This document shows positions 1,978-23,075 of a DNA stretch of 32,000 nucleotides, piece by piece. The DNA is from Candidatus Harpocratesius repetitus. Its GTDB lineage: Archaea; Asgardarchaeota; Lokiarchaeia; Sigyniarchaeales; Promethearchaeaceae. The DNA lies in NCBI GenBank assembly GCA_021498095.1, contig JAIZWK010000001.1:3060001-3092000 (forward strand). The letters run 5' to 3'. Position numbers and translations under genes: made by a program. Every line of letters begins with the position of its first letter. The first letter of the stretch is position 1. The notes under the pieces were generated by a model. The model was not told the DNA's origin and did not search any database. It worked only from the letters and a program-made list of their open reading frames with translations.

Positions 1978-2004
1978 AAGAGTTTACCATCGATAATGTA
2001 TTCA

Positions 2005-2012
2005 TATATAAA
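2005..2012 (-). promoter_or_regulatory. Archaeal TATA box for the Roadblock gene
   Basis: TTTATATA on the minus strand, ending 28 nt before the ATG at 1977, consistent with a short-leader or leaderless transcript. Confidence 0.55.
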
Positions 2013-2226
2013 GGGTTGAATTTATTTCTTATTTATAACAATCTTGTTTATAGTATAAATAATTTTGGCTCATTAAGAAGAACCTATGAAAAGATAAGAA
2101 AGCATAACTTAAAAGCATTTAAATTGGAATTGTAGAATAATTTGCATTGCAAAATAAGAATATAAAGAATATAGTAAAAAGAATAGAAAAAGGTTGATTG
2201 ATTATTTATATTAAAAAAGTTCATAT

Positions 2227-7625: not shown

Positions 7626-8116
7626 GAATATAAAAAACCATCCTTTATTTTAGAACAAGAAATTTATGATTTTTAATTGAGGATATTTTATCTTTTTTAA
7701 TTTAAACGCTTTTTTGAATATCATTCATATATTTCCGACTTATATCTGAAATATCGCAATCTTCTTTTGTCGAACTCGTTTTTTTCAAAGAATTTGTTAA
7801 AAATATACCGTCTTGTTTATAAATTCTTCAATATGAAGTCGATTTTATTATAATTTTTGATTTACATATCTTGAATTTGGCACCTTGGTAAAATCGACAA
7901 AAAATAAAGAAGGCTATTTTGGATTTGAGTCTGAAGAATTAAGATGATGAAATGAAAAACTTCGAATTTTTGAAATTTAAAATACCCTCAATTATTTTTA
8001 ATTACACTACAAATCCTATTTCATAATCAAAATGCATAAAGAAGGAACTAAAAATTATTGTTTGTAAAAAAGTATGAATTCTAAAAAAGATCAAATCATT
8101 TATTTTCAGCTCGATA

Positions 8117-8506
8117 TTAAAACATCAATTGAATATCTGAATTTGTCGCAATCTCAACTAAATCTCCCATAGAACCGATTGTTACAAAATCTAAAAGGAT
8201 ATCTGTCGTAATTCCCCGCTTTTCACAACAAATTCCACAAGCAATAATTTTACCGCCTTCTTCATTGATATTTTTAAGCCATGTTTGCATATTTGGCCCT
8301 TCTTTTGGATCTTGACCTTTAATTGCTAAGGTTACTGCTGCACCTAAAAGAAAAACATTTACAATATGTTCTTGAACAAGGGCAGTTAAAGCAAAACGCA
8401 AACCAGAAAAACTTTTTTCGCTAGTATAAGCATCTTCAGTTATTATTATATAAAACCTCTTTTGTTTATTTTCACTCAATTTTTTTTCAACCCTTTCTTT
8501 TCTCAT
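8117..8506 (-). CDS. DsrE-family sulfur-relay protein, YchN-like, with CxxCC
   Basis: EDAYTSEKSFSGLRFA, VFLLGAAV, GQDPKEGPNMQTWL and ACGICCEKRGI follow the YchN/DsrE pattern. Confidence 0.85.
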   Translation of the reverse strand: MRKERVEKKLSENKQKRFYIIITEDAYTSEKSFSGLRFALTALVQEHIVNVFLLGAAVTLAIKGQDPKEGPNMQTWLKNINEEGGKIIACGICCEKRGITTDILLDFVTIGSMGDLVEIATNSDIQLMF

Positions 8507-8582
8507 AAAAAAAAAAATTTGTTATTTCAAAAAACAAAATTTTGATTATTCAATGGTGATGAATGTCTTTTTTTCAAAGGTC

Positions 8583-8819
8583 TTATTTTACACATTCAAA
8601 ATAGAGAAACCATCCTTCATCTTCATCATTTTCTTCTTTTCCTAAGAATTTATGCTTTGTTTTGGCTAAATCTCTTGGAACACTTTCTACTGCGGGTTCA
8701 TAGTCAAGAATTACTTTTAATACTTGCCCAGGACTCATTTTAAGCAGTTTTTTCTTCGTTTTCAAAGCAGGCATGGGACAAACCAAGCCACATACATCCA
8801 GTTCTTCATCATAATCCAT
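8583..8819 (-). CDS. tusA: TusA-family sulfur carrier (copy 1, in the hdr operon)
   Basis: LDVCGLVCPMP (CPxP motif), PGQVLKVILDYEPAVESVP; Shine-Dalgarno-like GAGGT upstream. Confidence 0.9.
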   Translation of the reverse strand: MDYDEELDVCGLVCPMPALKTKKKLLKMSPGQVLKVILDYEPAVESVPRDLAKTKHKFLGKEENDEDEGWFLYFECVK

Positions 8820-8863
8820 TTTACGTTTACCTCATATTCGATTAAAATATTTTATTTATGTAT

Positions 8864-9292
8864 TTATGTTGTTTTTAAAAAAATAGGATCTCTTTGGTTT
8901 GGAAGAATTTGAAATTCAACTTGATTTAATTCAACTAACCGCAGAGCTTCAAATCTCACTTTTATTGTGGATAAACCTAATAGGTCTGCTATTTTTGGAA
9001 TGGTGCTCTTAGGGTGTTCTTCAATAACTTTTAACACTTTTTCACGTGTGTTTAAAAAGTTTTCAGGATCTTTCTTTTTCCCTCGACGCACCATAGGACA
9101 GCTATTATAACAATTTCCACAAGCTAGACCAATTGTAGTCATAATACATTTCCCTTTTAGAAGTGGGGTTTTTTTTTTCTTCTCATTGACTGTTTCACTC
9201 ATTTCAATGTGTTTACATGATTTTGCACAAATCCCACAACCAATGCATTGATTTGTATCAATAATTTTAGTTTTTAAAAGTTCAAAGCTCAT
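8864..9292 (-). CDS. 2x[4Fe-4S] ferredoxin-like domain fused to a C-terminal winged-helix (HTH) domain
   Basis: CIGCGICAKSC and C...CGNCYNSCP; the N-terminus resembles the ferredoxin module of FrhB/FpoF-like proteins. C-terminal REKVLKVIEEHPKSTIPKIADLLGLSTIKVRFEALRLVELNQV is wHTH-like. Start overlaps the preceding gene by 11 nt. Confidence 0.7.
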   Translation of the reverse strand: MSFELLKTKIIDTNQCIGCGICAKSCKHIEMSETVNEKKKKTPLLKGKCIMTTIGLACGNCYNSCPMVRRGKKKDPENFLNTREKVLKVIEEHPKSTIPKIADLLGLSTIKVRFEALRLVELNQVEFQILPNQRDPIFLKTT

Positions 9293-10574
9293 AATTTTTA
9301 CTCTCCCAATTAGTTATTATACCTCGTGAATCGAGGGTAAATGTTACATTCTTTGAAGAAGAAGTATATGTTCCTTCTTGAATTGGTATAGGATGAGCCC
9401 GAAAATTATCAAAATTCTTAAAAGAATCCAATTTAATTTTCATGCCTCCAAAGTAGAGATTAGACAAATTCATGTTACCTGCTAATTTTCTGATATTTTC
9501 CGTGCTCTCAGCATACAAATTTGGATCCATATTTTCACATGCCAACTTGTATTTCTTTTCCAATTCTAATAGTTGTTCCCTTATTGTCTTTAACTCATTA
9601 TCTAATTCCAATTTAATACCCTTTTCATAAGCATCAAGGATATCAATAGTCATTGAAATGAAACTTTTTCCACCCATCATTCCTGTAATAAGCGGCAATT
9701 CTTCAATCGGTCGTCCAACCATAATATCTGCAATAATATTTCCAGAAGATGGTATTTTACCAGGTGGAATCGGTGAATTTGCCAAAGTAAATCGGAAAAA
9801 GGTACCAACCACATCAGAATAGGCACTTGAAATTTCATCTTCTTCATCAGCTAGCTTATCGGTAGCACCTTTTGAAGATGCTTCAGTGGCAACATCCATT
9901 TGACCCATGAGGGTTCCCATCATTCCAAGCATACGAATTGATGAATCGTCAATAAAGGGATTGCAACCTCGACATGGAGTTCCAAAATCAATACAACGCT
10001 CTTGACAATTATTTGCAATATATCCTGAACATGTATATCCAACATCATTAAAACATTGTTTTTCATCAAGCTCTTGAAGATCGATTTGATGGACAATTTC
10101 TTCTAAGAAGGAACAAGTTGATTCTCTTGGACATTTTTCACATAGTTTTTCAGATTGAAATTGATTATAATCTTTCAATAATGCTAAAAGATGATCACCA
10201 GAGGCTAAGCATCCCCTTATTTCTTGATCTACAGAAATAATTTTAGATATTGGAAAAATTTCTATCCCTTTTTGATATGCTAATCCAAAAATTCCTCCGT
10301 CAGTCGCACAAGATCCAAAAGTAAAAACTTGATTAGCAATTTTTCGAATTTCTTGTAAACAATGAAGATTTTCTGAAGTAGCATATCCTGAGAAAATCGC
10401 AATATCTATTGATGAAGGAAGATTATATTCATCTGTACACCAAATTAACTTCACATCTGTTTCTTCTTCATAATCTTTAACATTACGAACGATTAATTCT
10501 GGATTCCCAATCAGATTAATAATTTCGTTGCGACATTTTGTGCATCCATTTAATTGAAATATTCCAATTTTCAT
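9282..10574 (-). CDS. mvhG: MvhG-like hydrogenase small subunit (3 Fe-S clusters) fused to a degenerate MvhA-like fragment lacking Ni ligands
   Basis: GCTKC, GSCATDGGIFGL, RGC, LCEKCPR, CFNDVGYTC, CQERC, PCRGC and DVVGTFFRFTL align with MvhG (aa 1-272). aa 273-430 contain GRPIEELPLI, as in MvhA just before the L1 motif, but no CxxC. Confidence 0.8.
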   Translation of the reverse strand: MKIGIFQLNGCTKCRNEIINLIGNPELIVRNVKDYEEETDVKLIWCTDEYNLPSSIDIAIFSGYATSENLHCLQEIRKIANQVFTFGSCATDGGIFGLAYQKGIEIFPISKIISVDQEIRGCLASGDHLLALLKDYNQFQSEKLCEKCPRESTCSFLEEIVHQIDLQELDEKQCFNDVGYTCSGYIANNCQERCIDFGTPCRGCNPFIDDSSIRMLGMMGTLMGQMDVATEASSKGATDKLADEEDEISSAYSDVVGTFFRFTLANSPIPPGKIPSSGNIIADIMVGRPIEELPLITGMMGGKSFISMTIDILDAYEKGIKLELDNELKTIREQLLELEKKYKLACENMDPNLYAESTENIRKLAGNMNLSNLYFGGMKIKLDSFKNFDNFRAHPIPIQEGTYTSSSKNVTFTLDSRGIITNWESKNYEL

Positions 10575-10990
10575 TGCTTCAAAACTCCTTTATTTTCAAT
10601 AGCTTGTTTTAATTTTTCCAAAATATCTTCGAAATCACCTACAGCAGTTTCTCCTTCAGCGGCTCGAGCCGTATATTGGTTTAAAATTAACTCGCTGTAA
10701 CCCATTTCTTTGATAAATTTTTTGAGCAATTTCACACGGCGCAAAGAGACCAAATTACCATTGAAGAAATGGCAGGCACCAAAACAACAACCAATTACAG
10801 CAACGGAATCTGCTCCATTTTTATATGCATCCATGATTTGAATAGGGCCAACTTGGCCTGCACATTTTACTCGAATTATCTTAATTGAAGTATCATATTG
10901 CATTCGAGCAACTCCAGCAGTATTTGCTGCCCCTTGACCACATTCAGCACACATAAAGCAAACAACATTCTTTTTTGTTTTTGTTTCCAT
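10571..10990 (-). CDS. mvhD: MvhD/FlpD [2Fe-2S] adaptor subunit (Cys form)
   Basis: FMCAEC...ANTAGVARMQY...IIRVKCAG...GADSVAVIGCCFGACHF.NGN; stop overlaps the next start (ATGA). Confidence 0.92.
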   Translation of the reverse strand: METKTKKNVVCFMCAECGQGAANTAGVARMQYDTSIKIIRVKCAGQVGPIQIMDAYKNGADSVAVIGCCFGACHFFNGNLVSLRRVKLLKKFIKEMGYSELILNQYTARAAEGETAVGDFEDILEKLKQAIENKGVLKQ

Positions 10991-10998
10991 TATAATAT

Positions 10999-12999
10999 TT
11001 ACACCCCTTTTTCTAAGATTGGATGCGCCACGGCTTCAATTTCATCTCTTAGTTGTTCTTCTCTATAATTTATCACTTGAATCGCATGTGTTGGACAAGC
11101 AGGCATGCAAATTCCACAGCCTTTGCACCCAACTTCATTTACAACAGGTTTACCATTTTCCCATAAAATTGCTGAAGGTGAACATGCAGTGATGCATGCA
11201 CGACATTTTGTACAAAGATCATAGTCAATTTTTGCAATTATCATCTCTTTTTCTATATATCCTTTTACCAAAGAAGAAACTGCTCCAACAGCAGCTGCAC
11301 TTCCTTGGGCTACTGATTGGGTTATATCTTTTGGTCCTTGAATTGCACCAGCAATAAATATTCCATCTCGACTTGATCTTGTTGGATCCATTTTAATATG
11401 GAATTCTTTAATAAACCCTTCTTTCCCACGAAGCAATTGCAGTCGTGAACCTAATAAACCAACACCTTTTGGGGCAACCATTGCTGCTGAAAGAATTACC
11501 AAATCTGCATGTAATTCCATAGGTTCTGCCATAAAAGTATCTTCAACGTAGACTTTCAAACAATCATTTTCCGGATCTGCCTCAATTTCAGATGGTCTTC
11601 CACGAATGAAGAGTACCCCTTTCTTTTGACATGCTTTATAATATTCTTCATAATATAAACCAGGTGTTCGTATATCAATATAACAAATATATACGTTTGA
11701 ATCTGGATAAGTATCTTTTATAATACCAGCATTTTTAATTGCAAACATGCAACAAACACCTGTACAATATTCATTGCCAACTAATTCATTCCTTGATCCA
11801 ACACATTGAATTATGACTACATTTTTTGGAATCCTTCCATCAGATGGTCTCAATAGTTGACCTCCAGTAAGAGATGTTGGACCCATCATTCTTTCAAATT
11901 GGAGTTGAGTTATTATATTCTCATAACCCGGTATTTTGTAATGATAAGCTTCTATTTCACTGGGATCATATTCTTCATATCCTGTAGCAACAATAATTGA
12001 TCCGACTTTGATTTTAGTTTTACTCTTCTTAAGTGAAAAATCTATTGCATTTACGGGACAAGTCTCAACGCAACGCCCACAATCAATACAATTCTTTCGA
12101 TCAACTACAAATGTTGAAGGAATTGCTTGAGGATATAATTTATAAATTGCCTTTCTAATTCCCATCCCAGAATCCCATTCTGCAGGTAATTCAACCGGAC
12201 ATACACTTGCACATTCTCCACATGAAGTACAATTAGACTTTACATATCGCGGTTTGGTTGTGATTGTGACTGTAAAATTTCCTATACTTCCATCTACAGA
12301 ACTAACTATTGAATTTGTAAATAATGTCACATTTTCATGAGTTGCTACTGCATTCGTAAGTGGTGAAATACTACATTGAGGGCATTCATTTGTTGGAAAT
12401 GTTTTATTTAATTGAGTCATATGTCCACCAATACTTGATTCTCGTTCAACTAAATATACCGGAATTCCTGAATCAGCTGTATCTCGAGCGGCTCTAAGTC
12501 CAGCAATGCCTCCACCAATGACCAATACTGCTTTGGTAATTTGAATTTTCTGTGTTCTAACTTCTTCTAATGTTCGAGCCCGATTAACTCCTGCTTTAAC
12601 TAGTTGTTTTGCTTTTTCAGTGGCTTCAACATGATCTTTTTGATGAACCCAACTATCATGTTCTCGAATATTAACTTGTTGATGAAGATGTTTATTTAAT
12701 CCGACTTCAGAAATTGCACGAGCAAAAGTAGGTCCGTGCTGCGTTTTAGAACAAGAAGCCACCACAGTTCTGGTTAAATTATATTCTTTCACTGCATTTT
12801 TTATTAATTCAATACCTTGTTTAGAGCACATAAACATATTATCTGTAGAAAATTCAACATTTGGAAGAGTTTTTGCATATTCAGCAACTGCTTTTACATC
12901 GACAACATCAGCAATATTATGCCCACAGTGACAAACGAAAACTCCAATACGTTCATTACTTTTCGGATTGTTTTTTTTGTCTTTCTCTTTTTCGACCAT
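10999..12999 (-). CDS. hdrA: Heterodisulfide reductase subunit A (FAD, Fe-S), methanogen-type, Cys form
   Basis: IGVFVCHCG, NIREHDSWVH, VIGGGIAG, KTFPTNECPQC, two inserted CxxCxxCxxxCP, QFERM, CVGSR...YCTGVCCMFAIKNA, GPKDI, C-terminal 2x[4Fe-4S]. Confidence 0.97.
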   Translation of the reverse strand: MVEKEKDKKNNPKSNERIGVFVCHCGHNIADVVDVKAVAEYAKTLPNVEFSTDNMFMCSKQGIELIKNAVKEYNLTRTVVASCSKTQHGPTFARAISEVGLNKHLHQQVNIREHDSWVHQKDHVEATEKAKQLVKAGVNRARTLEEVRTQKIQITKAVLVIGGGIAGLRAARDTADSGIPVYLVERESSIGGHMTQLNKTFPTNECPQCSISPLTNAVATHENVTLFTNSIVSSVDGSIGNFTVTITTKPRYVKSNCTSCGECASVCPVELPAEWDSGMGIRKAIYKLYPQAIPSTFVVDRKNCIDCGRCVETCPVNAIDFSLKKSKTKIKVGSIIVATGYEEYDPSEIEAYHYKIPGYENIITQLQFERMMGPTSLTGGQLLRPSDGRIPKNVVIIQCVGSRNELVGNEYCTGVCCMFAIKNAGIIKDTYPDSNVYICYIDIRTPGLYYEEYYKACQKKGVLFIRGRPSEIEADPENDCLKVYVEDTFMAEPMELHADLVILSAAMVAPKGVGLLGSRLQLLRGKEGFIKEFHIKMDPTRSSRDGIFIAGAIQGPKDITQSVAQGSAAAVGAVSSLVKGYIEKEMIIAKIDYDLCTKCRACITACSPSAILWENGKPVVNEVGCKGCGICMPACPTHAIQVINYREEQLRDEIEAVAHPILEKGV

Positions 13000-13001
13000 T
13001 T

Positions 13002-13955
13002 TTACCCAGCCCCTTCAATAGATTTTTCCTTTATCGATACTTTCTCCATAGGTTCCTTTAATTCTTTAAATTGATAATCTTTTCCATGGGCTTGATATTG
13101 TAAGCCTATTTTCTCCATATCCATTCCCATACACCATGCAGTTAATTGAGACATATGTATTACAGGAATATCAAAATTAGTTCCATAAATTTCGTTTACA
13201 GTAGTTTGGCCACCATCAAATTGTAATTGGCAAAATGGACATGTATCAAAAATAAAATCCGGATTAGCTGCCTGCATATGACCTAATTTTTCTTTCAAAA
13301 TCTTCATAGATGTATTTTTATCAAAGCTAAGAACACCTCCACCTGCACCACAACATGTTAATTTTTGAGCAAAATCAACAGATTTAACACCTAAGGCTTC
13401 GACATATTCCTCCAGAAAGGTTGGAATTTCAGGTGAAGCAAGTTGGCGAATTCTAGAAGGTTTTAAAAGATGGCATCCATAATGAACAGCAGCTCTTGCC
13501 TCTGCTTTTCGAACAATGTATTTCTGAATTTCAGTGGGTCCTACTTCAAAACCGAGAATTTCGGCAATGTGGCGGACTCGAATTGTTCCTTTCCATTGAT
13601 AATCACCCATTTCTTTTAATTTTTCATTAACTTTTGCAGCCATCTCTGGATCAGATTTTAGATGCTTATTTACATCAATTAAAGTTCCAAAGCAACCATT
13701 ACATACGGTTAAAATGTCTGCGTCGTTCTTTTCAGCAATCGCAATATTGCGTGCAGCTGCAACCATCCAATCACTTTTATCAAAAGAACGAAAAACCCCA
13801 GGAGCTGGACAACATGTTGCACGTTCCATTTCCATAAGCGTAAAACCTAATTTTTTCATAACAAACCGGGTTGCAGATTCAATTTGCGGGTAACGATTAG
13901 GCATAATGCATCCTAAAAAGAATGAAAATGTATTTTCTTTTACCATTTCTTTCAC
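13002..13955 (-). CDS. hdrB: Heterodisulfide reductase subunit B (two CCG domains)
   Basis: FLGCIMPNRYP, TCCPAPG, VCNGCFGTL, HYGCHLLKP, TCCGAGGG, CPFCQLQFD. Confidence 0.97.
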   Translation of the reverse strand: MKEMVKENTFSFFLGCIMPNRYPQIESATRFVMKKLGFTLMEMERATCCPAPGVFRSFDKSDWMVAAARNIAIAEKNDADILTVCNGCFGTLIDVNKHLKSDPEMAAKVNEKLKEMGDYQWKGTIRVRHIAEILGFEVGPTEIQKYIVRKAEARAAVHYGCHLLKPSRIRQLASPEIPTFLEEYVEALGVKSVDFAQKLTCCGAGGGVLSFDKNTSMKILKEKLGHMQAANPDFIFDTCPFCQLQFDGGQTTVNEIYGTNFDIPVIHMSQLTAWCMGMDMEKIGLQYQAHGKDYQFKELKEPMEKVSIKEKSIEGAG

Positions 13956-14070
13956 TTTATTTAAAATTTTTATTTATTTTTTAGCAAACTATATATTTTT
14001 TTTGTCAATTTCGTCTTAATATTTAAAAATTTATTTACTAAATGCTTTTTTTCTTTAATTATTAAGATTT

Positions 14071-14661
14071 TTAACTTAATTTTTCAAAACCATCCAAATT
14101 TTTTCTGGAATTTGCTTTTCTTTCTTTATATTCCTTACCTCTTTCAACAACTCTGAAAAGTTTATGGAAAGGGATAATTTCAGAATTTTCTTCATCGCGA
14201 TATTTATATAATGTTGGTGGAATCGGATCCAATCCTAAGGCTTCTCTTTGCCTTATAATTTTATCATTTATCGGAACCGCATGCCCTGTTGATCGCAGAT
14301 AACCAACAACTGCGGTATGATTAGGACTCATATTCCCAATTTCACTGGCATAATTTCTTAAATCTATTATTACGTCAGTTGGACGAACATCACGTGGACA
14401 ACGTTCATAGCAATTGTAACATGTAGTACAAAGCCAAATGTCTGGATCTTCTAAGACAGATAGATCGCCCAAAGCAGCTTTTCTAACAATTTGCCGTGTA
14501 CGGATAGCAGTCCAACGCCCACTCTCACAAGAAGCTGTACAAGTGCCACATTGAATACAAGAAAAAATATTACTCCTCCGAGCAATATTTTCAAAAAATT
14601 GAGGGTCAAAATCCTCTAATTTTTTATATTTTCGCTTAATTGATATTTCACTTTCAGTCAT
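14071..14661 (-). CDS. hdrC: Heterodisulfide reductase subunit C
   Basis: CIQCGTCTASC and WLCTTCYNCYERCPRDV; TGHAVP. Confidence 0.95.
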   Translation of the reverse strand: MTESEISIKRKYKKLEDFDPQFFENIARRSNIFSCIQCGTCTASCESGRWTAIRTRQIVRKAALGDLSVLEDPDIWLCTTCYNCYERCPRDVRPTDVIIDLRNYASEIGNMSPNHTAVVGYLRSTGHAVPINDKIIRQREALGLDPIPPTLYKYRDEENSEIIPFHKLFRVVERGKEYKERKANSRKNLDGFEKLS

Positions 14662-14885
14662 TATTCATAACTCCAAAATGGATTTTTTACAAAGTATTTC
14701 ATAGACTCCTTTAATTCCTTTTGATTTTCATAAGTTTCTTCTTTTAATTTTCATGTGCTGATCTTGATTTTAAAATACTAAATTTATTCTTTACATTTTT
14801 ATCTACATAATTCTTTTATCATTTTATTTTAAAAGCAATTCTGAATCCTTTTTTAAAACAAATGAATATAAGAATTCAATAATTT

Positions 14886-14970
14886 GCATCATTCGTGTCG
14901 GTCTATGGATAAAAAGCCGTCGAATGTACAATGTGTTATATTAATCTGAATGCAACTTATAAATATTTGT
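14886..14970 (-). promoter_or_regulatory. hdr operon promoter: BRE/TATA plus TGTACATT-N29-AATG element (copy 1)
   Basis: Minus strand: ACAAATA-TTTATAA (TATA 14963-14957), TGTACATT at 14930-14923, AATGATGC from 14893. The 16-mer ATTGTACATTCGACGG is identical to the one at 16238-16223. Confidence 0.7.
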
Positions 14971-15007
14971 TCCACTAATCTAAAAAAAAAGTGACAAAAT
15001 TTCTTTA

Positions 15008-15553
15008 TCAAGGAATTGATATCCTTATATCTTCTTTAACACATTGCAACACAACTTGTGTGTGAATTTCTTCGATGCCTGGAATAAATTTCACTTTTTC
15101 CAATAATTGAATTTGATCCTCTTTTTCAATACATTTTGCCATACAAAATATTGAATAATTTCCAGAAATCTGGTATATTGAATTAATTTTCTCAATTTCA
15201 ATTAATTTATTAAAAATATCTTGAATTGGAATAACATTGTTTACCCGAATTGAGAGTAACAACATTTCTTTATATCCAATCTTGCAACAATCAATTAATG
15301 CAGAATAAGCTTTAATTACACCAGTTTCAGTCAATTTATCTACATGATTTTTTATTGTTGAAACAGATGAATTCAATTTTTTGGCAATTTTTCGAAATGA
15401 AGCTTTTCCATCTTCTTGTAAAATTTGAAGGATCTTTTTATCTATATCACTCAATTCAATTTCTTTATGCATTAGTGATGAATTTTTTATATTGTTTGAG
15501 TTAACTGATTTTTGGACATTATTCAAAATCGGTTCACGAGGCATAATTTTCAC
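15008..15553 (-). CDS. Lrp/AsnC-family transcriptional regulator with five Cys
   Basis: LSDIDKKILQILQEDGKASFRKIAKKLNSSVSTIKNHVDKLTETGVI (HTH) and a RAM-like domain (YQISGNYSIF). The true start may be M28. Confidence 0.9.
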   Translation of the reverse strand: MKIMPREPILNNVQKSVNSNNIKNSSLMHKEIELSDIDKKILQILQEDGKASFRKIAKKLNSSVSTIKNHVDKLTETGVIKAYSALIDCCKIGYKEMLLLSIRVNNVIPIQDIFNKLIEIEKINSIYQISGNYSIFCMAKCIEKEDQIQLLEKVKFIPGIEEIHTQVVLQCVKEDIRISIP

Positions 15554-15563
15554 GAGAAATTAG

Positions 15564-15596
15564 ATTTGATTCATATTTGATTCATATTTGATTCAT
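15564..15596. repeat. Perfect 11-bp tandem repeat x3 (ATTTGATTCAT) just upstream of the Lrp gene
   Basis: Exact copies at 15564-15574, 15575-15585 and 15586-15596; a minus-strand TATA (TTTATATA) lies at 15633-15626. Confidence 0.9.
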
Positions 15597-15674
15597 TACT
15601 AAATAGAAAAATATAAAATGAAGTATATATAAAAAATAACTACATCTAAAACTGCTTAAATATTTCTGTTTTAT

Positions 15675-16094
15675 CTATAAAGAAATTACTTGATCTGCAT
15701 CATCAACCATTTCGATAAATTTTGCGGCACCGATAGGTTCTTCGCAGAAATCATGAATCTGTTCTTTCTTTACTCCCATTAAATCCATTGTCATTGAACA
15801 AGGATAGAGTTTAATATTACCTTCTTCAATTCCATCTTTAACCATTTCCCACATATCTTCATATCCAAAGGATTTCAATTTCTTTTTGAACATCATTGCA
15901 GCCATCCCCTTCATAGGGAAGGGCATACCTGCTACTTTTGGTTTAAAATTCTTTTTTAACAAGTTTATACCCCAGAAAGTGAAGAAAAAATTCATTTTTG
16001 TTTCCATTGCGGCACCAGTTGTGCCAAGGATTACCATCATTCCAAATTTCTCAAAACTTTGTTCGGATACGATAAAATTCATAACTTTTGGCAT
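15675..16094 (-). CDS. DsrE2-type (DrsE_2-like) sulfur carrier / peroxiredoxin-like family protein
   Basis: FFFTFWGINLLKK and IKLYPCSMTMDLMGV...GAAKFIE are characteristic of this family. Confidence 0.88.
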   Translation of the reverse strand: MPKVMNFIVSEQSFEKFGMMVILGTTGAAMETKMNFFFTFWGINLLKKNFKPKVAGMPFPMKGMAAMMFKKKLKSFGYEDMWEMVKDGIEEGNIKLYPCSMTMDLMGVKKEQIHDFCEEPIGAAKFIEMVDDADQVISL

Positions 16095-16191
16095 AATTTC
16101 TCACGTTTTTTTATTTTTAGTTATTTTGAATTTGTTGTTCATTTACATGTCATACTTAAAAAAACAAATGTAACAAAAGAAGAGTAGACAA

Positions 16192-16274
16192 GTAACATTT
16201 GTAACAGTTTCGATAGAAAAAACCGTCGAATGTACAATATAAGTATTATTTGCATTCGCCATATAAATCTTTGT
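16192..16274 (-). promoter_or_regulatory. dsrE2 promoter: BRE/TATA plus TGTACATT-N29-AATG element (copy 2)
   Basis: Minus strand: ACAAAGA-TTTATAT (TATA 16267-16261), TGTACATT at 16236-16229, AATGTTAC from 16199. Confidence 0.7.
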
Positions 16275-16412
16275 GATAAAATAGAGAGAATTAAGTGAAA
16301 ATAAAATCAAAAGGACTTTCATTTATCTTTAGGCCCACTTATCTGATTAAATGAAATAGTTAATTTACATTAATTACCTCAATTAATATCATCGAAATAA
16401 AAATGATGTGAA

Positions 16413-17234
16413 ATGGAACGAATACAATTCGCAGAAGAACAAATTCGTCGCTATTCTCGACATATTATATTGCAAGATATAGGATCAACTGGCGTGAAAA
16501 AATTAATTGGATCCACTATAGGCATAGTTGGCGCTGGAGGATTAGGATGTCCAGTAGTTCAAATGTTAGCCGCTGCTGGAATCGGACATCTTAAAATTAT
16601 TGATGGTGATAATGTAGAGCTTTCTAACCTTCCCCGACAACCATTGCATTTCACAACTGATGTTGGACGAAAAAAAGTTGATAGTATTTTAGAAAAAATC
16701 ATTGCTTTAAATTCAGAGATTCAAGTTGAAATTTTTCCAGAATATTTAACAAAAGCAAATGCAATTAAATTCTTGCAAGGTTGTGATTATGTAGTTGATG
16801 CCAGTGATAATTTTGCTACGAAATTTTTGATAAATGATGTTTGCATTCATTTAGGGATACCATTTAATATCGCTGGAGTAGTACAATGGATGGGGCAAAT
16901 TTTATCGGTTGATCCAGGAAAAACAACTTGTTATCGGTGCATTTTTCATACAATCTCTTCTGGGGATGAGTCTATGTCTTGTTCTGCTGCAGGGTTTATC
17001 AACACAGTTCCTAGTTTTGCAGGAATATTGCAAGCAAATGAAGCAATAAAATCAATTGTCGGATTACATCAAAAATTCACTAACGGATTATTTACATTTG
17101 ATTTAAGAGAAAATTCTTTTGATTTCATTCCAATTAAACAAAATCCAGAATGCGCGGCTTGCTCTCATCCAGAAATTCCTTTTTATAAAACAGAAAATTA
17201 TAATGTTGACTTAGATCAATGTAATATTCAGTAA
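16413..17234 (+). CDS. ThiF/MoeB/UbaA-type E1-like adenylyltransferase, no rhodanese domain
   Basis: RYSRHIIL, VGAGGLGC, IDGDNVELSNLPRQ, DASDNFATKFLIND, Zn motifs CYRC and CAAC, candidate catalytic Cys in SCSAAG. Confidence 0.93.
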   Translation: MERIQFAEEQIRRYSRHIILQDIGSTGVKKLIGSTIGIVGAGGLGCPVVQMLAAAGIGHLKIIDGDNVELSNLPRQPLHFTTDVGRKKVDSILEKIIALNSEIQVEIFPEYLTKANAIKFLQGCDYVVDASDNFATKFLINDVCIHLGIPFNIAGVVQWMGQILSVDPGKTTCYRCIFHTISSGDESMSCSAAGFINTVPSFAGILQANEAIKSIVGLHQKFTNGLFTFDLRENSFDFIPIKQNPECAACSHPEIPFYKTENYNVDLDQCNIQ

Positions 17235-17354
17235 TCGATAAAAAGAAAGAAAAATGGGATTCAATATATAAAAAAAAAGTATCTCAAAAATGATTAGATT
17301 AAAAGAATGAATTGAAATTGATGAAAATGCTTAAACTTATCAACACTTGATATA

Positions 17355-17633
17355 TCAAATACGTTCAATCCAAATTGTTTTCACTCCTCTTTTTTCAACG
17401 GAGTGAAGTATTTTTCCTAACTTTTGCTTGGTTACATTTTGTGGAACATTTGTAAATGCAGATGGAAAATCTAAAATCACTCTCAGAATTTCACCCGATT
17501 CCATTTCTTCTAATGCTACTTTAGTGTACACGAATGTCATAGGACACTGCACTCCAATTAGGTCCAACTCTTTACCTTTTTGCATCCATTTAATATTTGA
17601 GTCACTCATATGCATCTTGATCCATCTTTGCAT
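17355..17633 (-). CDS. TusA-family sulfur carrier (copy 2, variant CPMT motif)
   Basis: LDLIGVQCPMTFVYTKVALEEMESGEILRVILD; the true start is probably an internal Met. Confidence 0.85.
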   Translation of the reverse strand: MQRWIKMHMSDSNIKWMQKGKELDLIGVQCPMTFVYTKVALEEMESGEILRVILDFPSAFTNVPQNVTKQKLGKILHSVEKRGVKTIWIERI

Positions 17634-17770
17634 ATAATTTCATTTAATCCTTTGGATTGTTAAAAATCATATAAGAATCTTCATTTCATGAAAATTTATC
17701 AATCAATTTAAAGAAGGAATGGAAAAATCTGCATTTTTAAACACGAACCTTTTACAATATAGCGAGAGCC

Positions 17771-17778
17771 TTTATATG
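17771..17778 (+). promoter_or_regulatory. TATA box for iscS, probably a leaderless transcript
   Basis: TTTATATG begins 30 nt before the ATG at 17801. Confidence 0.5.
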
Positions 17779-17800
17779 TTGGATCTTTTTTTTCCTAAAT

Positions 17801-18988
17801 ATGGAAAAAGATATAGAAAACACCTATATATATTTGGATCATGCAGCCACAACACCTTTAGATCCAATAGTTTTTTCTGAAATGATTCCCTACTTACAAA
17901 ATTACTATGGAAATGCATCTTCAATGCATGGTATTGGCAGATTCTCTAGAAAAGCCATTGAATCTGCCCGCCAACGAATCGCTCAATGTATTGGGGCACA
18001 ACCTGAAGAAATTATATTTACAGGCAGTGGAACAGAAGCAGACAATATTGCCATTATTGGAACTGCTATGAAAATGAAGCGATATGGAAAGCATGTGATT
18101 ACAACAACAATCGAACATCCCGCTGTGCGGAATTGTTTTCGAAAATTGCAGATTGAAGGTTTTGAAGTATCTTATCTTTCTGTTGATAGTGAAGGACGCA
18201 TTTCTGTAGATGAATTTAAGAGACTAATTCGAAAAGATACCATTTTAGTATCTATCATGTATGCAAATAATGAAATCGGAAGTATTCAGCCAATTCAAGA
18301 CATTGCTGAAATAACCAACCAACACGGTATTATTTTTCACACAGATGCGGTTCAAGCTTTTGGAAAATTACCAATAAATGTTCAAAATGAAAAATTTGAT
18401 TTATTATCTGCTTCTGCTCATAAAATTTACGGCCCTAAAGGAATTGGAATGTTGTACATTCGAAATAGAGGTAGAAATCCAAAAAGGGGTGTTTATATTA
18501 TTCCAATTACTTATGGTGGAGGTCAAGAATTTGGATTTCGTTCAGCTACCGAAAATGTGGCAAATATCATTGGATTTGCGAAAGCAGTTGAATTATGTTA
18601 TGAAAATATGGATAAAATTGAAGCTCGATTGAAAAACATGCGCGATGACTTAATAAAATGGATTCTAACTAATATACCAGGAAGTTTTATCAATGGAGGA
18701 TTAAATCACAGACTACCAAATAATATTAATGTTGGATTTGAAGGAATTCAGGGAACAGACTTGCTGAAAAAATTAGATCAAGAGAAAATTGCTGTATCTG
18801 TCGGTTCTGCTTGCCATTCGAAATCTCAAGATGTCTCTTTTGTGCTCACTGCAATAGGATTATCTGAAGAGTTGGCAGCCTCATCCATACGATTAACTTT
18901 AGGAAAAAATACCACAAATGCTCAGCTTGAATATGTTAAAAATACTTTAAAACGTTGTGTGGAAGAATTACGCTTGAAAAATAAATAA
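17801..18988 (+). CDS. iscS: Class I cysteine desulfurase (IscS/NifS-type)
   Basis: YLDHAATTP, GNASSMH, EHPAV, NNEIGSIQP, HTDAVQ, PLP Lys in SAHKIYGPKG, catalytic Cys in SVGSACHS. Confidence 0.96.
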   Translation: MEKDIENTYIYLDHAATTPLDPIVFSEMIPYLQNYYGNASSMHGIGRFSRKAIESARQRIAQCIGAQPEEIIFTGSGTEADNIAIIGTAMKMKRYGKHVITTTIEHPAVRNCFRKLQIEGFEVSYLSVDSEGRISVDEFKRLIRKDTILVSIMYANNEIGSIQPIQDIAEITNQHGIIFHTDAVQAFGKLPINVQNEKFDLLSASAHKIYGPKGIGMLYIRNRGRNPKRGVYIIPITYGGGQEFGFRSATENVANIIGFAKAVELCYENMDKIEARLKNMRDDLIKWILTNIPGSFINGGLNHRLPNNINVGFEGIQGTDLLKKLDQEKIAVSVGSACHSKSQDVSFVLTAIGLSEELAASSIRLTLGKNTTNAQLEYVKNTLKRCVEELRLKNK

Positions 18989-19124
18989 TAACTCAATCAT
19001 TCTTCATCAATATGTGAAAAATTAAGTTCGTTTTGAAAAATTTTTCTGATAGAAATTAAAAATACATCAAAAAGAACATTGAAAAAAATCAACTTATATC
19101 AATAGAATCTTTGCACTTGGTCGA

Positions 19125-19433
19125 TTATAACCAAGACATCAATTTTTCTGCAGCTTCAATTAAATCGATTAAAGTTCCATAGGAAATAGGCTTGATAAAT
19201 TCAAATATTTTTTCTTTTTTTATCCCTCGAGCTTCAAGATCTTCAAGTAAAACGCTAATGGTCCAACCTTGTTTATCAAAATCAATAAATTCTGATTCGC
19301 CTTTGATTGCGCCAAATACTCCATCTTGCATTAAAACTAAATGACAATCTTCCCAATTTTTAGTGAACATTAACAAATCTTGAATTTTTTGATGCTCTAC
19401 TCCAGATTGTCCATATAATATTAAGTGTTTCAT
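19125..19433 (-). CDS. dsrH: DsrH/TusB-family subunit
   Basis: LVLMQDGVFGAI...VLLEDLEARGI...ISYGTLIDLIE; GGAGG ribosome-binding site; third gene of the dsrE-F-H run. Confidence 0.85.
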   Translation of the reverse strand: MKHLILYGQSGVEHQKIQDLLMFTKNWEDCHLVLMQDGVFGAIKGESEFIDFDKQGWTISVLLEDLEARGIKKEKIFEFIKPISYGTLIDLIEAAEKLMSWL

Positions 19434-19454
19434 ACATTCATTCCTCCATTTTTT

Positions 19455-19820
19455 TTACATATGGAACACCATCGAATATTCATCGATGATTCCGGGAAGG
19501 TCGTCTCGATTTACTACAGTCAACGCTTCATAATCAATAAGATCTTCTTCTGAAAATCCAAATTGGAAAAGGTCTTCACGAACAACGACAATTGGAAGTT
19601 CAGTTAAATCGGCCATCTCTATACCTTCGTCCATAGCATCCATATTAACTCTTTCTGGATTTAGATTATTTACTAGGTTAGTCACACCAGCTTGATAAAA
19701 TACTAATTTGCAATCTATATCTTCCCCTAAGCCCAAATATCCTGCACCTAATCTTATTGCTTCAACACCGGAATTTGTACCAAAGGGACCATTCTTGCAT
19801 AAAATTAAAACAGATTCCAC
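19455..19820 (-). CDS. dsrF: DsrF/TusC-family subunit
   Basis: ILCKNGPFGTNSGVEAIRLGAG, LVFYQAGV, VVREDL..FG; GTG start with GGAGG upstream. Confidence 0.85.
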   Translation of the reverse strand: MESVLILCKNGPFGTNSGVEAIRLGAGYLGLGEDIDCKLVFYQAGVTNLVNNLNPERVNMDAMDEGIEMADLTELPIVVVREDLFQFGFSEEDLIDYEALTVVNRDDLPGIIDEYSMVFHM

Positions 19821-19860
19821 TTTTTTGCCTCCATACTATTTAATGAAATACTATCATGCA

Positions 19861-20214
19861 TTAAGCATGATTACCAAAAACAATCACCTTATCTGCTGTT
19901 GCAGTTAAATTTGATAATTCACCTAAACCAGTTATATCTGCTCCATCAATTGCATTCTCTTTAAAAATTGCAAAATTATCTGCCCATGTTTGGCATGCTA
20001 TGATTGGAACACCTAACTTTTCTAATTCTGAGGGAATATTACGAGTATTTTTCCCTAAATGAGCACCTTTTTGAATATTAAGAACACCACTTCCAAAAAA
20101 GAAAATGCCCAAAATTTCGTGGTTTTTTTCTTTTGCAGCATGTACAATATTCAAGAGAGTATAAACAGGTTGAAATTTTAGGAATTCAGTCATTACAACA
20201 AAAGCTAGCTTCAT
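19861..20214 (-). CDS. dsrE: DsrE/TusD-family subunit carrying the conserved sulfur-accepting Cys
   Basis: HEILGIFFFGSGVLN, IIACQTWA, GLGELSNLTATADKVIVF. The start is placed at M18 of the 19861-20265 ORF (GGAG upstream); the extra N-terminus overlaps a T-rich tract. Confidence 0.85.
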   Translation of the reverse strand: MKLAFVVMTEFLKFQPVYTLLNIVHAAKEKNHEILGIFFFGSGVLNIQKGAHLGKNTRNIPSELEKLGVPIIACQTWADNFAIFKENAIDGADITGLGELSNLTATADKVIVFGNHA

Positions 20215-20261
20215 TTGTTCATTCTCCATCAATATGATTGAAAAAAAAAGAAAAAATAAAA

Positions 20262-20486
20262 TCAATCTTTTTTAATTAAAAACGTAAAAACACCATTATC
20301 TTCCTTCATCTCTACCAGGGTGCATCCTGTCTTTTTTAATAACGGAGGTATATCGACTTTTGCACCTGCATCATCAGCCACAAACTCGAAAGTTTGTCCT
20401 GAAGTCATTTTTTTGATTATTTTTTTTGTTTTCAGGACGGGCATGGGACATTTGAGTCCTTTAAAATCTTCTGTAAAATCTGCCAT
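20262..20486 (-). CDS. tusA: TusA-family sulfur carrier (copy 3, heading the dsrEFH run)
   Basis: EDFKGLKCPMPVLKTKK...SGQTFEFVADDAGAKVDIP; the start is placed at M13 of the 20262-20522 ORF. Confidence 0.9.
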   Translation of the reverse strand: MADFTEDFKGLKCPMPVLKTKKIIKKMTSGQTFEFVADDAGAKVDIPPLLKKTGCTLVEMKEDNGVFTFLIKKD

Positions 20487-20546
20487 ATAATTCACGTCAT
20501 ATAAGATTGTATAAATCGACAATCGTCACCGATTCTCGAATAAAAG

Positions 20547-20630
20547 TGCACATTTGTTTTAGTCTTAAAATAAAAGACCAAAAAATGTACAGTTAGTAAT
20601 TTATTTATACAGATCTTAATAAATCTTTTT
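20547..20630 (-). promoter_or_regulatory. tusA-dsrEFH promoter: BRE/TATA plus TGTACATT-N29-AATG element (copy 3)
   Basis: Minus strand: AAAAAGA-TTTATTAA (TATA 20623-20616), TGTACATT at 20591-20584, AATGTGCA at 20554-20547. Confidence 0.7.
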
Positions 20631-20641
20631 TCATTCTTTTT

Positions 20642-21166
20642 TCACTTTTTACTGAAATATTCAGCATAATATTGAATATATCCAGCATAAGCCATCAATG
20701 CTTCTGGGCTTTTAAAAACAATTTGAAAAGATTGAGTATTAATTGGCAAAAAATGAATATCAGAATGAATATAACGATAATTTTCTTGAAGTAATTCCAT
20801 CATTAAGTTTGCATTATTATTAGGAAATTCAATTAAAAAAATCAATCCTGATTTTGGAAAAAATGCAATTATATCAGATAATTTGAAGAAAATATTTTCT
20901 TGAAAATTTATTTGTTCTGGTTGAATTTTTCTGAACAAATTACTTCGTTCTTGATATGTTTTAATAATATTTTGCTCACTTGTTCCAAAAATGATGAAAC
21001 CTTTATCGAAAAACTCTAAAAATAGAGGAGATCTTGCTTTTTGTAAATTTTCGTTTAAGAATCTTTCGAAACGTTGTATATACGCAATTATTTCCCGTTG
21101 AGTGGTGCTCACCATTAAAAACATAATTTGGGAACTTGCGTCTGCCATACTCTTTTGACCGATCAA
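20642..21166 (-). CDS. Hypothetical protein
   Basis: 174-aa ORF filling the gap between pncB and tusA, on the same strand; no recognised motif. Confidence 0.65.
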   Translation of the reverse strand: MIGQKSMADASSQIMFLMVSTTQREIIAYIQRFERFLNENLQKARSPLFLEFFDKGFIIFGTSEQNIIKTYQERSNLFRKIQPEQINFQENIFFKLSDIIAFFPKSGLIFLIEFPNNNANLMMELLQENYRYIHSDIHFLPINTQSFQIVFKSPEALMAYAGYIQYYAEYFSKK

Positions 21167-22550: not shown

Positions 22551-23075
22551 ATGAAGAAAAAAGGATTAAAAAATGAAAAACATTTATTCAATTCATCAGA
22601 TTCACCAAATCATAATGAAGATGAATTTGACTTGTTTGTTTCAGAATTACAAATGAAGATCGATGAAGAAAATAGGAAAGATTTTTCAAAACATGCTTTA
22701 GAGCTTGGTGATAATCCTTACCACCACCAGATTCCAGAAAACTCTGAAAAAATGATCCAAGGTGAATGGAGAGGACCTTGTGGTGATTCTGTGCGTTGGT
22801 ATCTTGATATCAAAAATAATTCCCAAAAAAAACCCTATATAAAGGCAGCTTATTACACTACAGATGGATGCACAACAACATCTATTGCGAGTTCTCAAAC
22901 AGCATTATTGGTTGAAAATCTAACAATTTCACAAGCCCGTAAAATTAATGATGACATTGTTCTCAAAGCTTTAGGAAATTTTCCAGAAAAAGATCATCAT
23001 TGTGTAACGCTTGCATTAACTTCCCTAAATATAGCTTTAGATAACTTTGAAAAAAAAATCAATAAGAGGGTTTAA
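22551..23075 (+). CDS. iscU: IscU/NifU-N-type Fe-S cluster scaffold
   Basis: Three conserved Cys in GPCGD, DGCTTTSIASS and DHHCVTLA. Confidence 0.9.
   Translation: MKKKGLKNEKHLFNSSDSPNHNEDEFDLFVSELQMKIDEENRKDFSKHALELGDNPYHHQIPENSEKMIQGEWRGPCGDSVRWYLDIKNNSQKKPYIKAAYYTTDGCTTTSIASSQTALLVENLTISQARKINDDIVLKALGNFPEKDHHCVTLALTSLNIALDNFEKKINKRV

Follow-up and report, generated by a model that had tools for sequence, protein, structure and literature searches.

A methanogen-type HdrABC-MvhD cluster linked to TusA and DsrE sulfur carriers and without a hydrogenase active site in an Asgard archaeon

The methanogen complex MvhADG-HdrABC (PDB 5ODC, 9SW2) acts on CoM-S-S-CoB, the disulfide of coenzymes M (CoM) and B (CoB), and published work on Asgard archaea has labelled genes of the kind described here 'MvhADG-HdrABC' (PMC7015854). 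In the current study, a stretch of 32,000 nucleotides (the window) from Candidatus Harpocratesius repetitus was analysed. The genome consists of one contig of 4.36 Mb with about 30% G+C, and the window covers 3.060-3.092 Mb of it. The window contains hdrCBA, mvhD and a fused gene, mvhG', which together with genes for sulfur carriers of the TusA and DsrE families form an island at positions 8117-20522, all genes of which are supported by Pfam and NCBIfam assignments. To our knowledge, Asgard genomes hold HdrABC genes, often in several sets, with no methane made and no demonstrated substrate. Models of Asgard syntrophy and eukaryogenesis presuppose routes of electron disposal (H2, formate, sulfur), and the conserved and probably co-regulated link between Hdr and sulfur carriers reported here provides a concrete candidate substrate that can be tested.

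The window unit shares with MvhADG-HdrABC the HdrA, HdrB, HdrC, MvhD and MvhG-domain families, including their cofactor ligands. MvhADG-HdrABC has MvhA, whereas the window cluster holds only a stub without conserved Cys, fused to MvhG. The window also has flanking sulfur-carrier genes, and relatives add an FrhB-type flavoprotein. Neither mcrA (MCR_alpha) nor comA was found in the one-contig genome, which is rated 93.6% complete, so that CoM-S-S-CoB is not expected in this organism. By its gene content the window unit is not a member of the MvhADG-HdrABC system, and caution is advisable in labelling these loci 'MvhADG-HdrABC hydrogenase'.

A second described system is ElpABC-HdrABC of Methanothermobacter marburgensis, in which the cofactor-less FdhA remnant ElpA, the FrhB/FdhB-like ElpB and the MvhD homologue ElpC feed HdrABC (PMC12350162; PDB 8RVU). 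A dead donor remnant, an FrhB-type flavoprotein and an MvhD homologue also occur in the clusters of the relatives, which by analogy would work most like ElpABC-HdrABC. The likeness to ElpA is one of analogy and not orthology, as the Elp-Hdr remnant derives from Fdh and that of the window from a [NiFe] hydrogenase. Moreover, FrhB carries an inserted NfnB/GltD-like NAD(P)H module in most Asgard relatives, and the FrhB/FdhB-like flavoprotein kept in Elp-Hdr is deleted in the window. The substrate of Elp-Hdr is CoM-S-S-CoB, and that of the Asgard clusters differs.

In sulfur oxidisers, TusA interacts with sHdr proteins (PMC11094781), and TusA and DsrE-family sulfur transferases always accompany the Hdr-type enzyme of the sHdr-LbpA system (PMC11094781, PMC6067878). 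Transferases of both families also stand beside the Hdr-type enzyme in the window. However, sHdrA has about 350 aa and no ferredoxin domains, compared to 666 aa and four Fe-S domains in the HdrA of the window, and the layout hdrC1B1A-hyp-C2B2 with lbpA and lipoate-ligase genes contrasts with the single hdrCBA, mvhD and mvhG' found here. The hosts of sHdr are sulfur oxidisers, while the window organism is of the anaerobic fermenter type. Judged by these features, the window unit is not a member of sHdr-LbpA.

A precedent for a protein-bound Hdr substrate is given by sulfate reducers, in which DsrK of DsrMKJOP, a subunit with CCG domains (HdrD/HdrB-like), reduces sulfur on a carrier of the TusE/DsrC type. 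DsrMKJOP is membrane-bound, non-bifurcating and quinone-linked. In the genome of the window organism, DsrC/TusE, DsrAB and the sulfite reductase domain (NIR_SIR) were not found, and hits to the GcvH family were restricted to 1.207 and 1.601 Mb, more than 1 Mb from the cluster. The first-pass annotation of the window had singled out mcr, CoM/CoB synthesis, dsrABC and lbpA as the genes to look for; with no mcrA, comA, dsrC or sulfite reductase, the classical substrates of Hdr and Dsr are unlikely.

The idea that Hdr acts on persulfides bound to TusA and DsrE is drawn in Fig. 5 of a preprint (bioRxiv 10.1101/2025.07.22.663070) for Nerearchaeum marumarumayae, with electrons from a group 3c [NiFe] hydrogenase. 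This is the same carrier-persulfide idea, put forward as a hypothesis, and the passages of the preprint that deal with it do not mention a Ni-less MvhG' fusion, an FrhB-type donor or conserved synteny. The first-pass annotation had called the system 'undescribed', which is too strong since those passages already sketch it for another Asgard archaeon. A full-text literature search gave no biochemical study and no further paper on this Asgard arrangement beyond that preprint. The idea of a carrier-bound persulfide substrate is sound but not new, and the window adds a donor-less, split, probably co-regulated variant. Specifically, a genome-unique operator appears to have been kept on every piece after the operon broke up, the donor arm is modular (FrhB, FrhB::NfnB-like, or almost nothing), and a Ni-less 'hydrogenase' relic parallels the Elp-Hdr of methanogens.

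The catalytic core is encoded on the minus strand by hdrC (14071-14661), hdrB (13002-13955) and hdrA (10999-12999), followed by mvhD (10571-10990), which encodes a [2Fe-2S] connector of the FlpD family (Pfam PF02662, E 2.8e-31). Residues 14-657 of HdrA aligned with residues 2-649 of 9sfi_A (E 7.5e-195), and the match to 5odc_A was of similar quality (E 3.3e-191), whereas sHdrA (6tjr_A) covered merely residues 328-575. Ferredoxin domains are present at the N-terminus, at the C-terminus and as an insertion. The HdrA motif FAIKNA aligned with FALKNA, placing the Lys of IKNA at the position of Lys409, which in 5ODC contacts N5 of the bifurcating flavin adenine dinucleotide (FAD) (PMC6405883). The Glu of the ERM motif is conserved as well, so that both residues which the first-pass annotation had marked as retained are indeed in place.

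HdrB (317 aa, two CCG domains recognised by Pfam as two stretches) matched the methanogen HdrB 8rvu_b with an E value of 1.6e-92, including the CCPAPGVF motif, and contains all ten Cys of the non-cubane [4Fe-4S] clusters. Among 38 orthologues, Cys 16, 48, 49, 85, 88, 201, 202, 239 and 242 were invariant and Cys161 nearly so. HdrC (196 aa, Pfam Fer4_8/Fer4_17) has eight Cys for two [4Fe-4S] clusters and is 61-74% identical to its orthologues in the clusters of relatives. The matches of HdrA and HdrB to solved methanogen subunits are of the 55-60% type, with all cofactor ligands present. On the basis of the full-length HdrA, the single hdrC and hdrB with no hdrC2B2 in the cluster, and the distance of any lipoate-binding protein, the Hdr is classified as the methanogen type and not as sHdr, in agreement with the earlier reading of the locus.

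A search with HdrA gathered 55 Asgard loci, onto which the window proteins were mapped by tblastn; the nearest public loci all belong to Asgard metagenome-assembled genomes labelled Promethearchaeota, Promethearchaeia, Hermod-, Hod- or Odinarchaeota. Counting all loci with enough flank, which were chosen by HdrA similarity and are mutually related and hence not independent events, a DsrE-type gene in the same orientation preceded hdrC by no more than 400 nt in 44 of 45 loci, and in 45 of 49 tusA followed mvhG' within 3 kb. Over about 60 related Asgard loci the genes were seen as a single unit, and two gene orders were observed. In the first (f2-type), a divergent Lrp gene is followed by tusA-dsrE-dsrF-dsrH-dsrE2-hdrC-hdrB-hdrA-mvhD-mvhG'-donor-tusA, and in the second (f9-type), found in a second family of the phylum, the order is dsrE-hdrCBA-mvhD-mvhG'-frhB (345 aa)-tusA-dsrEFH. 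The cluster is a conserved feature of some Asgard archaea, principally of one family of the Lokiarchaeia type.

The individual carriers follow the same pattern. In relatives, the hdr operon ends in tusA_a, which shows 61-74% identity over 38 orthologues and a mean column identity of 87%. Orthologues of dsrE2 (57-71% identity) adjoin hdrC in 39 loci and lie directly upstream of it in the f2-type order, of which tusA-dsrEFH are the first four cluster genes. A homologue of dsrE_a (25-33% identity) is located directly upstream of hdrC in the f9-type order and is absent at the position occupied in the window in the f2-type order. Near the five other hdr loci of the window genome, no tusA or dsrE was found. 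Missing linkage in relatives had been named beforehand as the outcome that would speak against a joint system; the tight linkage observed, through two gene orders, is good evidence that the hdr and tus/dsr genes work together. Sulfur supplied by the carriers is accordingly a candidate substrate of HdrB, an assignment to which only gene linkage points and to which we would give about even odds.

The similarity of HdrB to the methanogen enzyme, with conserved motifs such as CCPAPGVF, would also fit an alternative in which HdrB acts on a small thiol/disulfide pair standing in for CoM and CoB, and TusA and DsrE serve the synthesis of that pair, the HdrB clusters or general sulfur trafficking. Six loci of the genome contain hdrB, one of them being mvhG-hdrC-hdrB-mvhA without hdrA, which suggests a pool-type thiol/disulfide carrier common to several enzymes, and the biosynthetic genes iscS, thiF and an iscU-like gene are gathered at the window cluster. 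Nevertheless, this alternative is thought unlikely: comA and mcrA were not found in the genome, no candidate cofactor is known, and the carriers are linked to one hdr paralogue only, and that in two gene orders, while a general supply role predicts otherwise. Direct use of carrier-held sulfur by HdrB is the reading that is followed here.

The part of the complex that would deliver electrons to Hdr is altered. The gene mvhG' (9282-10574, minus strand) encodes a protein of 430 aa, of which residues ~1-276 form an MvhG small-subunit domain. It was identified by phmmer matches to MvhG of 9sw2_E and 5odc_E (E 5.6e-20), and residues 1-215 of the AlphaFold model matched 5odc_E at Z 12.8. The Cys ligands of the three Fe-S clusters of this domain are invariant in 34 orthologues. 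The tail of about 150 aa (residues 278-430) is the best-predicted part of the model and matched the [NiFe] large subunit FrhA (6qgt_A) over 130 aa with Z 8.7 and a root-mean-square deviation (rmsd) of 2.8 A.

By hhalign, tail residues 278-335 were placed on residues 42-99 of the MvhA encoded by the same genome, with RICGIC replaced by MMGGKS. Weak alone (E 0.012), this match is in line with both the fold comparison and the gene order of mvhG and mvhA. The single Cys of the tail (Cys346) is not conserved, and the L1 (RxCGxC) and L2 (DPCxxC) Ni-Fe ligands of MvhA were not found in the cluster, which holds a large-subunit stub only. MvhG' is therefore identified as MvhG fused to a Ni-less remnant of a [NiFe] large subunit. 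With its Fe-S ligands kept and no Cys ligands in the stub, it could wire electrons but, according to sequence and model, could not bind nickel or split H2.

The first-pass annotation had proposed that no hydrogenase active site was present, which holds for the cluster but not for the genome, which carries a separate [NiFeSe] hydrogenase locus and two [FeFe] hydrogenase genes. The sole [NiFe] large subunit is encoded in the order mvhG (455 aa)-hdrC-hdrB-mvhA (445 aa) at 1495707-1499960, 1.57 Mb from the window cluster and without hdrA or mvhD, and is group-3c-like, of the Vhu type. MvhA ends in '...LPDPWLK' and lacks the C-terminal Ni ligands, and about 40 nt downstream of mvhA lies a small open reading frame (ORF) for a VhuU-like peptide (DCU-LS-C-AA-H) with an in-frame TGA (selenocysteine), which supplies these ligands. 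The two are read as a split [NiFeSe] large subunit of the Vhu type. It is unusual for a hydrogenase to be coupled straight to HdrBC with no HdrA. Gene content indicates that the organism can handle H2, but not via the window complex.

In the relatives, the gene after mvhG' usually encodes a protein of 822 aa with the domains FrhB_N, Fer4_20, Pyr_redox_2 and FrhB_C. Its middle matched NAD(P)H flavoproteins of the NfnB/GltD type (E 2e-71 to 4ylf_B), and its ends matched FrhB and Fsr. Other relatives have an FrhB-only donor of 345-380 aa, and in the window the protein at this place, fd-wH (8864-9292, minus strand), has only 142 aa. Aligned to the 822-aa orthologue, residues 1-82 of fd-wH are ~42% identical to residues 1-86 and residues 83-138 are ~43% identical to residues 762-817, so that ~675 residues of the donor subunit, comprising the FAD/F420 and NAD(P)H parts, have been deleted internally. 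The ferredoxin domain of the 2x[4Fe-4S] type is kept, with eight invariant Cys.

The C-terminus of fd-wH folds as a winged helix (TMt 0.87-0.91 and rmsd 1.1-1.8 A to Z-alpha, with further hits to MarR and ArsR). An independent strain carries an equally short gene, and the sole other FrhB-like gene of the genome is unlinked, at 2.344 Mb. The alignment identifies the gene as an in-frame remnant of the FrhB-type donor subunit, with the winged helix being the conserved C-terminus of that subunit and not a separate regulator. The winged-helix fold had been called correctly in the first-pass annotation, but its listing as a gene type of its own was not upheld, and the question of the electron donor had not been raised there.

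A short donor was also seen in relatives at L036:6440-9379 and L058:1955-4963, where an FrhB-only protein (380 aa in L036) is followed by tusA and then by a second hdrC-hdrB pair. This second pair resembles hdrCB of the hydrogenase locus of the window genome (38-50% identity).

Taken together, the following path is proposed for the relatives. NAD(P)H or F420H2 would provide electrons of intermediate potential, which would enter via the FrhB or FrhB::NfnB-like flavoprotein and pass through the clusters of MvhG' and the [2Fe-2S] cluster of MvhD to the bifurcating FAD in HdrA. One branch would then lead to ferredoxin and the other via HdrC to both non-cubane clusters in HdrB, where a sulfane-sulfur or disulfide species supplied by TusA and DsrE would be reduced in place of CoM-S-S-CoB. 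In the confurcating direction HdrB would form that species instead; the sequence does not tell whether the system consumes or produces sulfane sulfur. As the donor flavoprotein is gone, the window complex would have to draw electrons from another partner via the remaining 2x[4Fe-4S] domain, or work in a reduced, possibly non-bifurcating mode.

A more far-reaching and less probable reading is an Asgard bifurcation system in which the high-potential acceptor is sulfane sulfur on TusA and DsrE, present as a persulfide or as a di- or trisulfide between carriers, and the donor arm is hydrogenase-derived and H2-independent. The window would then represent a variant whose flavoprotein input is replaced by a partner docking on the ferredoxin/winged-helix subunit. 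We give this reading a probability of roughly 0.3. If it is true, bifurcation onto carrier-held sulfane sulfur would be a new sulfur-linked form of energy coupling among the prokaryotes most closely related to eukaryotes.

Several points weigh against the proposed use of carrier-held sulfur by HdrB. The substrate is assigned solely by gene linkage. The active site of methanogen HdrB, which the HdrB of the window closely resembles, accommodates two small thiol cofactors, and its buried clusters may be out of reach for a Cys loop on TusA or DsrE. Couples of the S0/H2S type lie near -270 mV, so that bifurcation from NAD(P)H would be driven much less strongly than with CoM-S-S-CoB. In a sample of 301 genomes from the phylum, MvhG' was detected in 43, and in 34 of 69 of one family, and two other genomes of the same genus have neither MvhG' (with this query) nor an orthologous HdrA; the system is dispensable and patchy. 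Lastly, the donor module is gone from the window genome, and among the differences listed between two strains, fd-wH has 2 synonymous and 5 non-synonymous ones, although these numbers are small. A complex prediction for HdrB (38-row alignment) and TusA_a (39-row alignment) scored 0.01 against a mark of 0.32, which speaks neither for nor against docking.

The strain comparison is based on a 59.7-kb contig from an independent 2025 study, which is collinear with window positions 7991-16500 at ~98% identity and indicates that the gene arrangement is not an assembly artefact. No indel, frameshift or stop distinguishes the two strains in ~6.3 kb of hdr/mvh coding sequence. Of the indels, seven are located between genes and one affects codon 8 of dsrE_a, ahead of an alternative TTG start. 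Among the differences listed, mvhG' has 10 synonymous and 6 non-synonymous ones and tusA_a 2 and 0, and the cofactor ligands are intact in HdrA, HdrB, HdrC, MvhD, MvhG' and the ferredoxin domain. These data point to continued selection on the core and perhaps to relaxed selection on the fd-wH remnant.

It is rather improbable, then, that the window cluster is a decaying remnant which has lost its donor and is no longer energy-coupling. The internal deletion of ~675 donor residues, the rearranged cluster and its absence (MvhG' and orthologous HdrA) from the two congeners agree with decay, as do the excess of non-synonymous changes in fd-wH (5 vs 2) and the differences of window proteins at 10-14% of the positions that are invariant in relatives (37% in DsrE_c). 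Decay does not account for the intact ligands, for coding sequences free of frameshifts and stops between 98%-identical strains whose spacers gather indels, for the ratios seen in mvhG' and tusA_a, or for an operator unique in the genome and kept on all three units (described below). The divergence itself is mostly phylogenetic, since HdrA of the window shows 60-68% identity to both groups of relatives and the identities of the aspartyl-tRNA synthetase (AspRS) are similar. The use of carrier-held sulfur by HdrB remains the preferred reading.

An accelerated evolution of the window copy was also considered, because the HdrA of G234, a genome of the same family, is 83% identical to the f2 type and that of the window only 65%. 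This was dropped, as the HdrA of the window is about equally far from the f2- and f9-type proteins (60-65% identity to the latter) and AspRS is 55-61% identical among the three lineages. A long-separate lineage, or a transfer into G234, may explain the HdrA identities as well.

The genes from hdrC to dsrE_a are co-oriented on the minus strand, as previously noted. Gaps of 115 nt (hdrC/hdrB), 2 nt (hdrB/hdrA) and 8 nt (hdrA/mvhD) are followed by overlaps of 4 nt (mvhD/mvhG') and 11 nt (mvhG'/fd), and then by gaps of 44 nt (fd/tusA_a) and 76 nt (tusA_a/dsrE_a), the last with a T11 run. Compared to the order in relatives, Lrp, thiF, tusA_b and iscS are inserted in the window and a dsrE-family gene is added at the end. 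An ancestral single operon has, according to this comparison, been broken into tusA-dsrEFH, dsrE2 and hdrCBA-mvhD-mvhG'-fd-tusA.

The element TGTACATT-N29-AATG has exactly three copies in both strands of the 4.36-Mb genome (0.72 expected), each preceding one of the three units on the minus strand: at 14890-14930, ~230-270 nt upstream of hdrC; at 16196-16236, upstream of dsrE2; and at 20551-20591, upstream of tusA_c-dsrEFH. Each copy is situated just past a TATA-like box and reads in the coding strand. In addition, the 16-mer ATTGTACATTCGACGG has two copies genome-wide, upstream of hdrC and of dsrE2. The motif that the first-pass annotation had reported for three promoters is thus confined to them, and it was not found upstream of the inserted iscS, thiF and tusA_b. 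Since each unit carries the same operator-like element, the three split units probably remain co-regulated as one regulon.

The regulator of the Lrp/AsnC family encoded next to the cluster (15008-15553, minus strand; Pfam HTH_24/HTH_AsnC/AsnC_trans_reg) is perhaps the protein that binds the shared element; its homologue divergently adjoins the cluster in relatives of both gene orders. Tracing of the operator across genomes was not successful, as the tusA promoters of relatives carry, past the TATA box, inverted repeats whose sequence is not that of the window element. An Rfam gathering scan of the window gave no hit, and hence no known riboswitch or leader in the long 5' region of hdrC.

Upstream of the Lrp gene, at 15554-15674, lies a triple tandem repeat (ATGAATCAAAT x3). 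Its copy number differs between strains, given that 22 nt of this region are deleted in the independent strain (run X2). Flanking repeats around the operon, suggested by an apparent joint 7993->15093 (run X1), were rejected because the flanks share no common word of at least 11 nt; the joint was a contig-end artefact.

The carriers themselves are all encoded on the minus strand. At the end of the hdr operon, tusA_a (8583-8819) encodes 78 aa with the active-site Cys14-Pro (Pfam TusA, E 4e-22), and dsrE_a (8117-8506; Pfam DsrE, E 8e-21) encodes a carrier of the DsrE/YchN family, whose true start is likely a TTG at codon 10. Upstream of Lrp follow dsrE2 (15675-16094; DrsE_2 family, Cys99; Pfam PF13686, E 1.7e-20), tusA_b (17355-17633; Cys30-Pro-Met-Thr; Pfam TusA, E 1.6e-15), the trio dsrE_c, dsrF and dsrH (19125-20265; TusD/C/B-like; Pfam DsrE, DsrE and DsrH) and tusA_c (20262-20522; Pfam TusA; likely start Met13 at 20486). 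The TusA Cys-Pro motif and the DsrE/F/H trio with the DsrE Cys are present, and Pfam scores exceed the cut-offs. NCBIfam matches were weaker: that of dsrE2 to DsrE2 is under the curated cut-off, and those of tusA_c-dsrEFH to the TusB/C/D types are mostly under the equivalog cut-offs, with the TusB domain reaching its own. On these domain matches the carriers are members of the Tus/Dsr families, while orthology to particular Tus/Dsr proteins goes beyond the NCBIfam evidence.

Two further genes of the island are on the plus strand. The first, at 16413-17234, encodes an E1-like adenylyltransferase of the MoeB/ThiF/UbaA type (Pfam ThiF, E 1.6e-71; NCBIfam matches under equivalog cut-offs), and the second, at 17801-18988, a cysteine desulfurase of the NifS/IscS type (Pfam Aminotran_5; NCBIfam NifS 474 bits vs a cut-off of 530), which is one of three paralogues in the genome, the other two being at 0.41 and 2.62 Mb. 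The presence of dsrE2, the E1-like enzyme, a second TusA, IscS and tusA-dsrEFH upstream of hdr, as described in the first-pass annotation, was confirmed, but the inclusion of IscS, the E1-like enzyme and the second TusA as parts of the system was not. The E1-like gene and tusA_b were not found in the clusters of relatives, and the three genes are insertions specific to the window genome. As IscS is outside the conserved cluster and lacks the motif, a route from cysteine via IscS to Hdr has no comparative support.

The carrier families also raise the question of whether selenium is moved instead of, or besides, sulfur, with Hdr reducing for the supply of selenide or selenophosphate. TusA_a, TusA_b and DsrE_a matched YedF, a TusA+DsrE-like protein of 'selenium metabolism', in NCBIfam, but these matches reached 33-45 bits against cut-offs of 79-110 and stood beside similar TusA/TusD hits. 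The genome does use selenocysteine, for example in the VhuU-like peptide adjoining mvhA, in-frame TGA codons occur in HdrA paralogues of relatives, and Asgard selenoproteomes are large (PMC13188914). The cluster itself contains nothing specific to selenium (selD, selA/B), and its HdrA uses Cys. A selenium role is considered very improbable, and sulfur is retained as the element that the carriers would deliver to HdrB.

The HdrA paralogues with in-frame TGA were found in loci L063-L066 (same-family genomes G094, G089, G165 and G234). They show 41-42% identity to the HdrA of the window and contain one or two such codons, consistent with a selenocysteine-containing HdrA.

Further hdr genes are scattered over the window genome. 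A large second locus at 2831000-2840000 contains hdrC, hdrB, several HdrA-like frames (one of 1002 aa) and two mvhD, and further hdrA-mvhD or hdrBC loci were seen at 0.31, 2.31 and 3.16 Mb.

Other genes related to sulfur were also noted. At 2199717-2200751, a DsrE2 paralogue (33% identity) adjoins a rhodanese domain inside an open frame of 835 aa, which may encode an NAD(P)H persulfide/polysulfide reductase of the CoA-disulfide-reductase/rhodanese type and thus be a second candidate for a sulfane-sulfur reductase. At 4269032-4270294, a gene of the YeeE/TsuA-type thiosulfate-transporter family is present as two frames (184 and 173 aa) and adjoins a TusA-like gene (41% identical to tusA_a); judging by its family, it could provide an import route for thiosulfate-derived sulfur.

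Within the window, an ORF of 174 aa without a Pfam match (20642-21166) lies between tusA_c and a nicotinate phosphoribosyltransferase gene, and a NifU_N/IscU-like protein with an N-terminal extension of ~45 aa is encoded at 22551-23075, 2 kb past the sulfur island. At the other end (1522-4986), the gene of a Roadblock/LC7-domain protein adjoins that of a hybrid histidine kinase of 919 aa, which combines an N-terminal SBP_bac_3 (solute-binding) domain with PAS and receiver domains.

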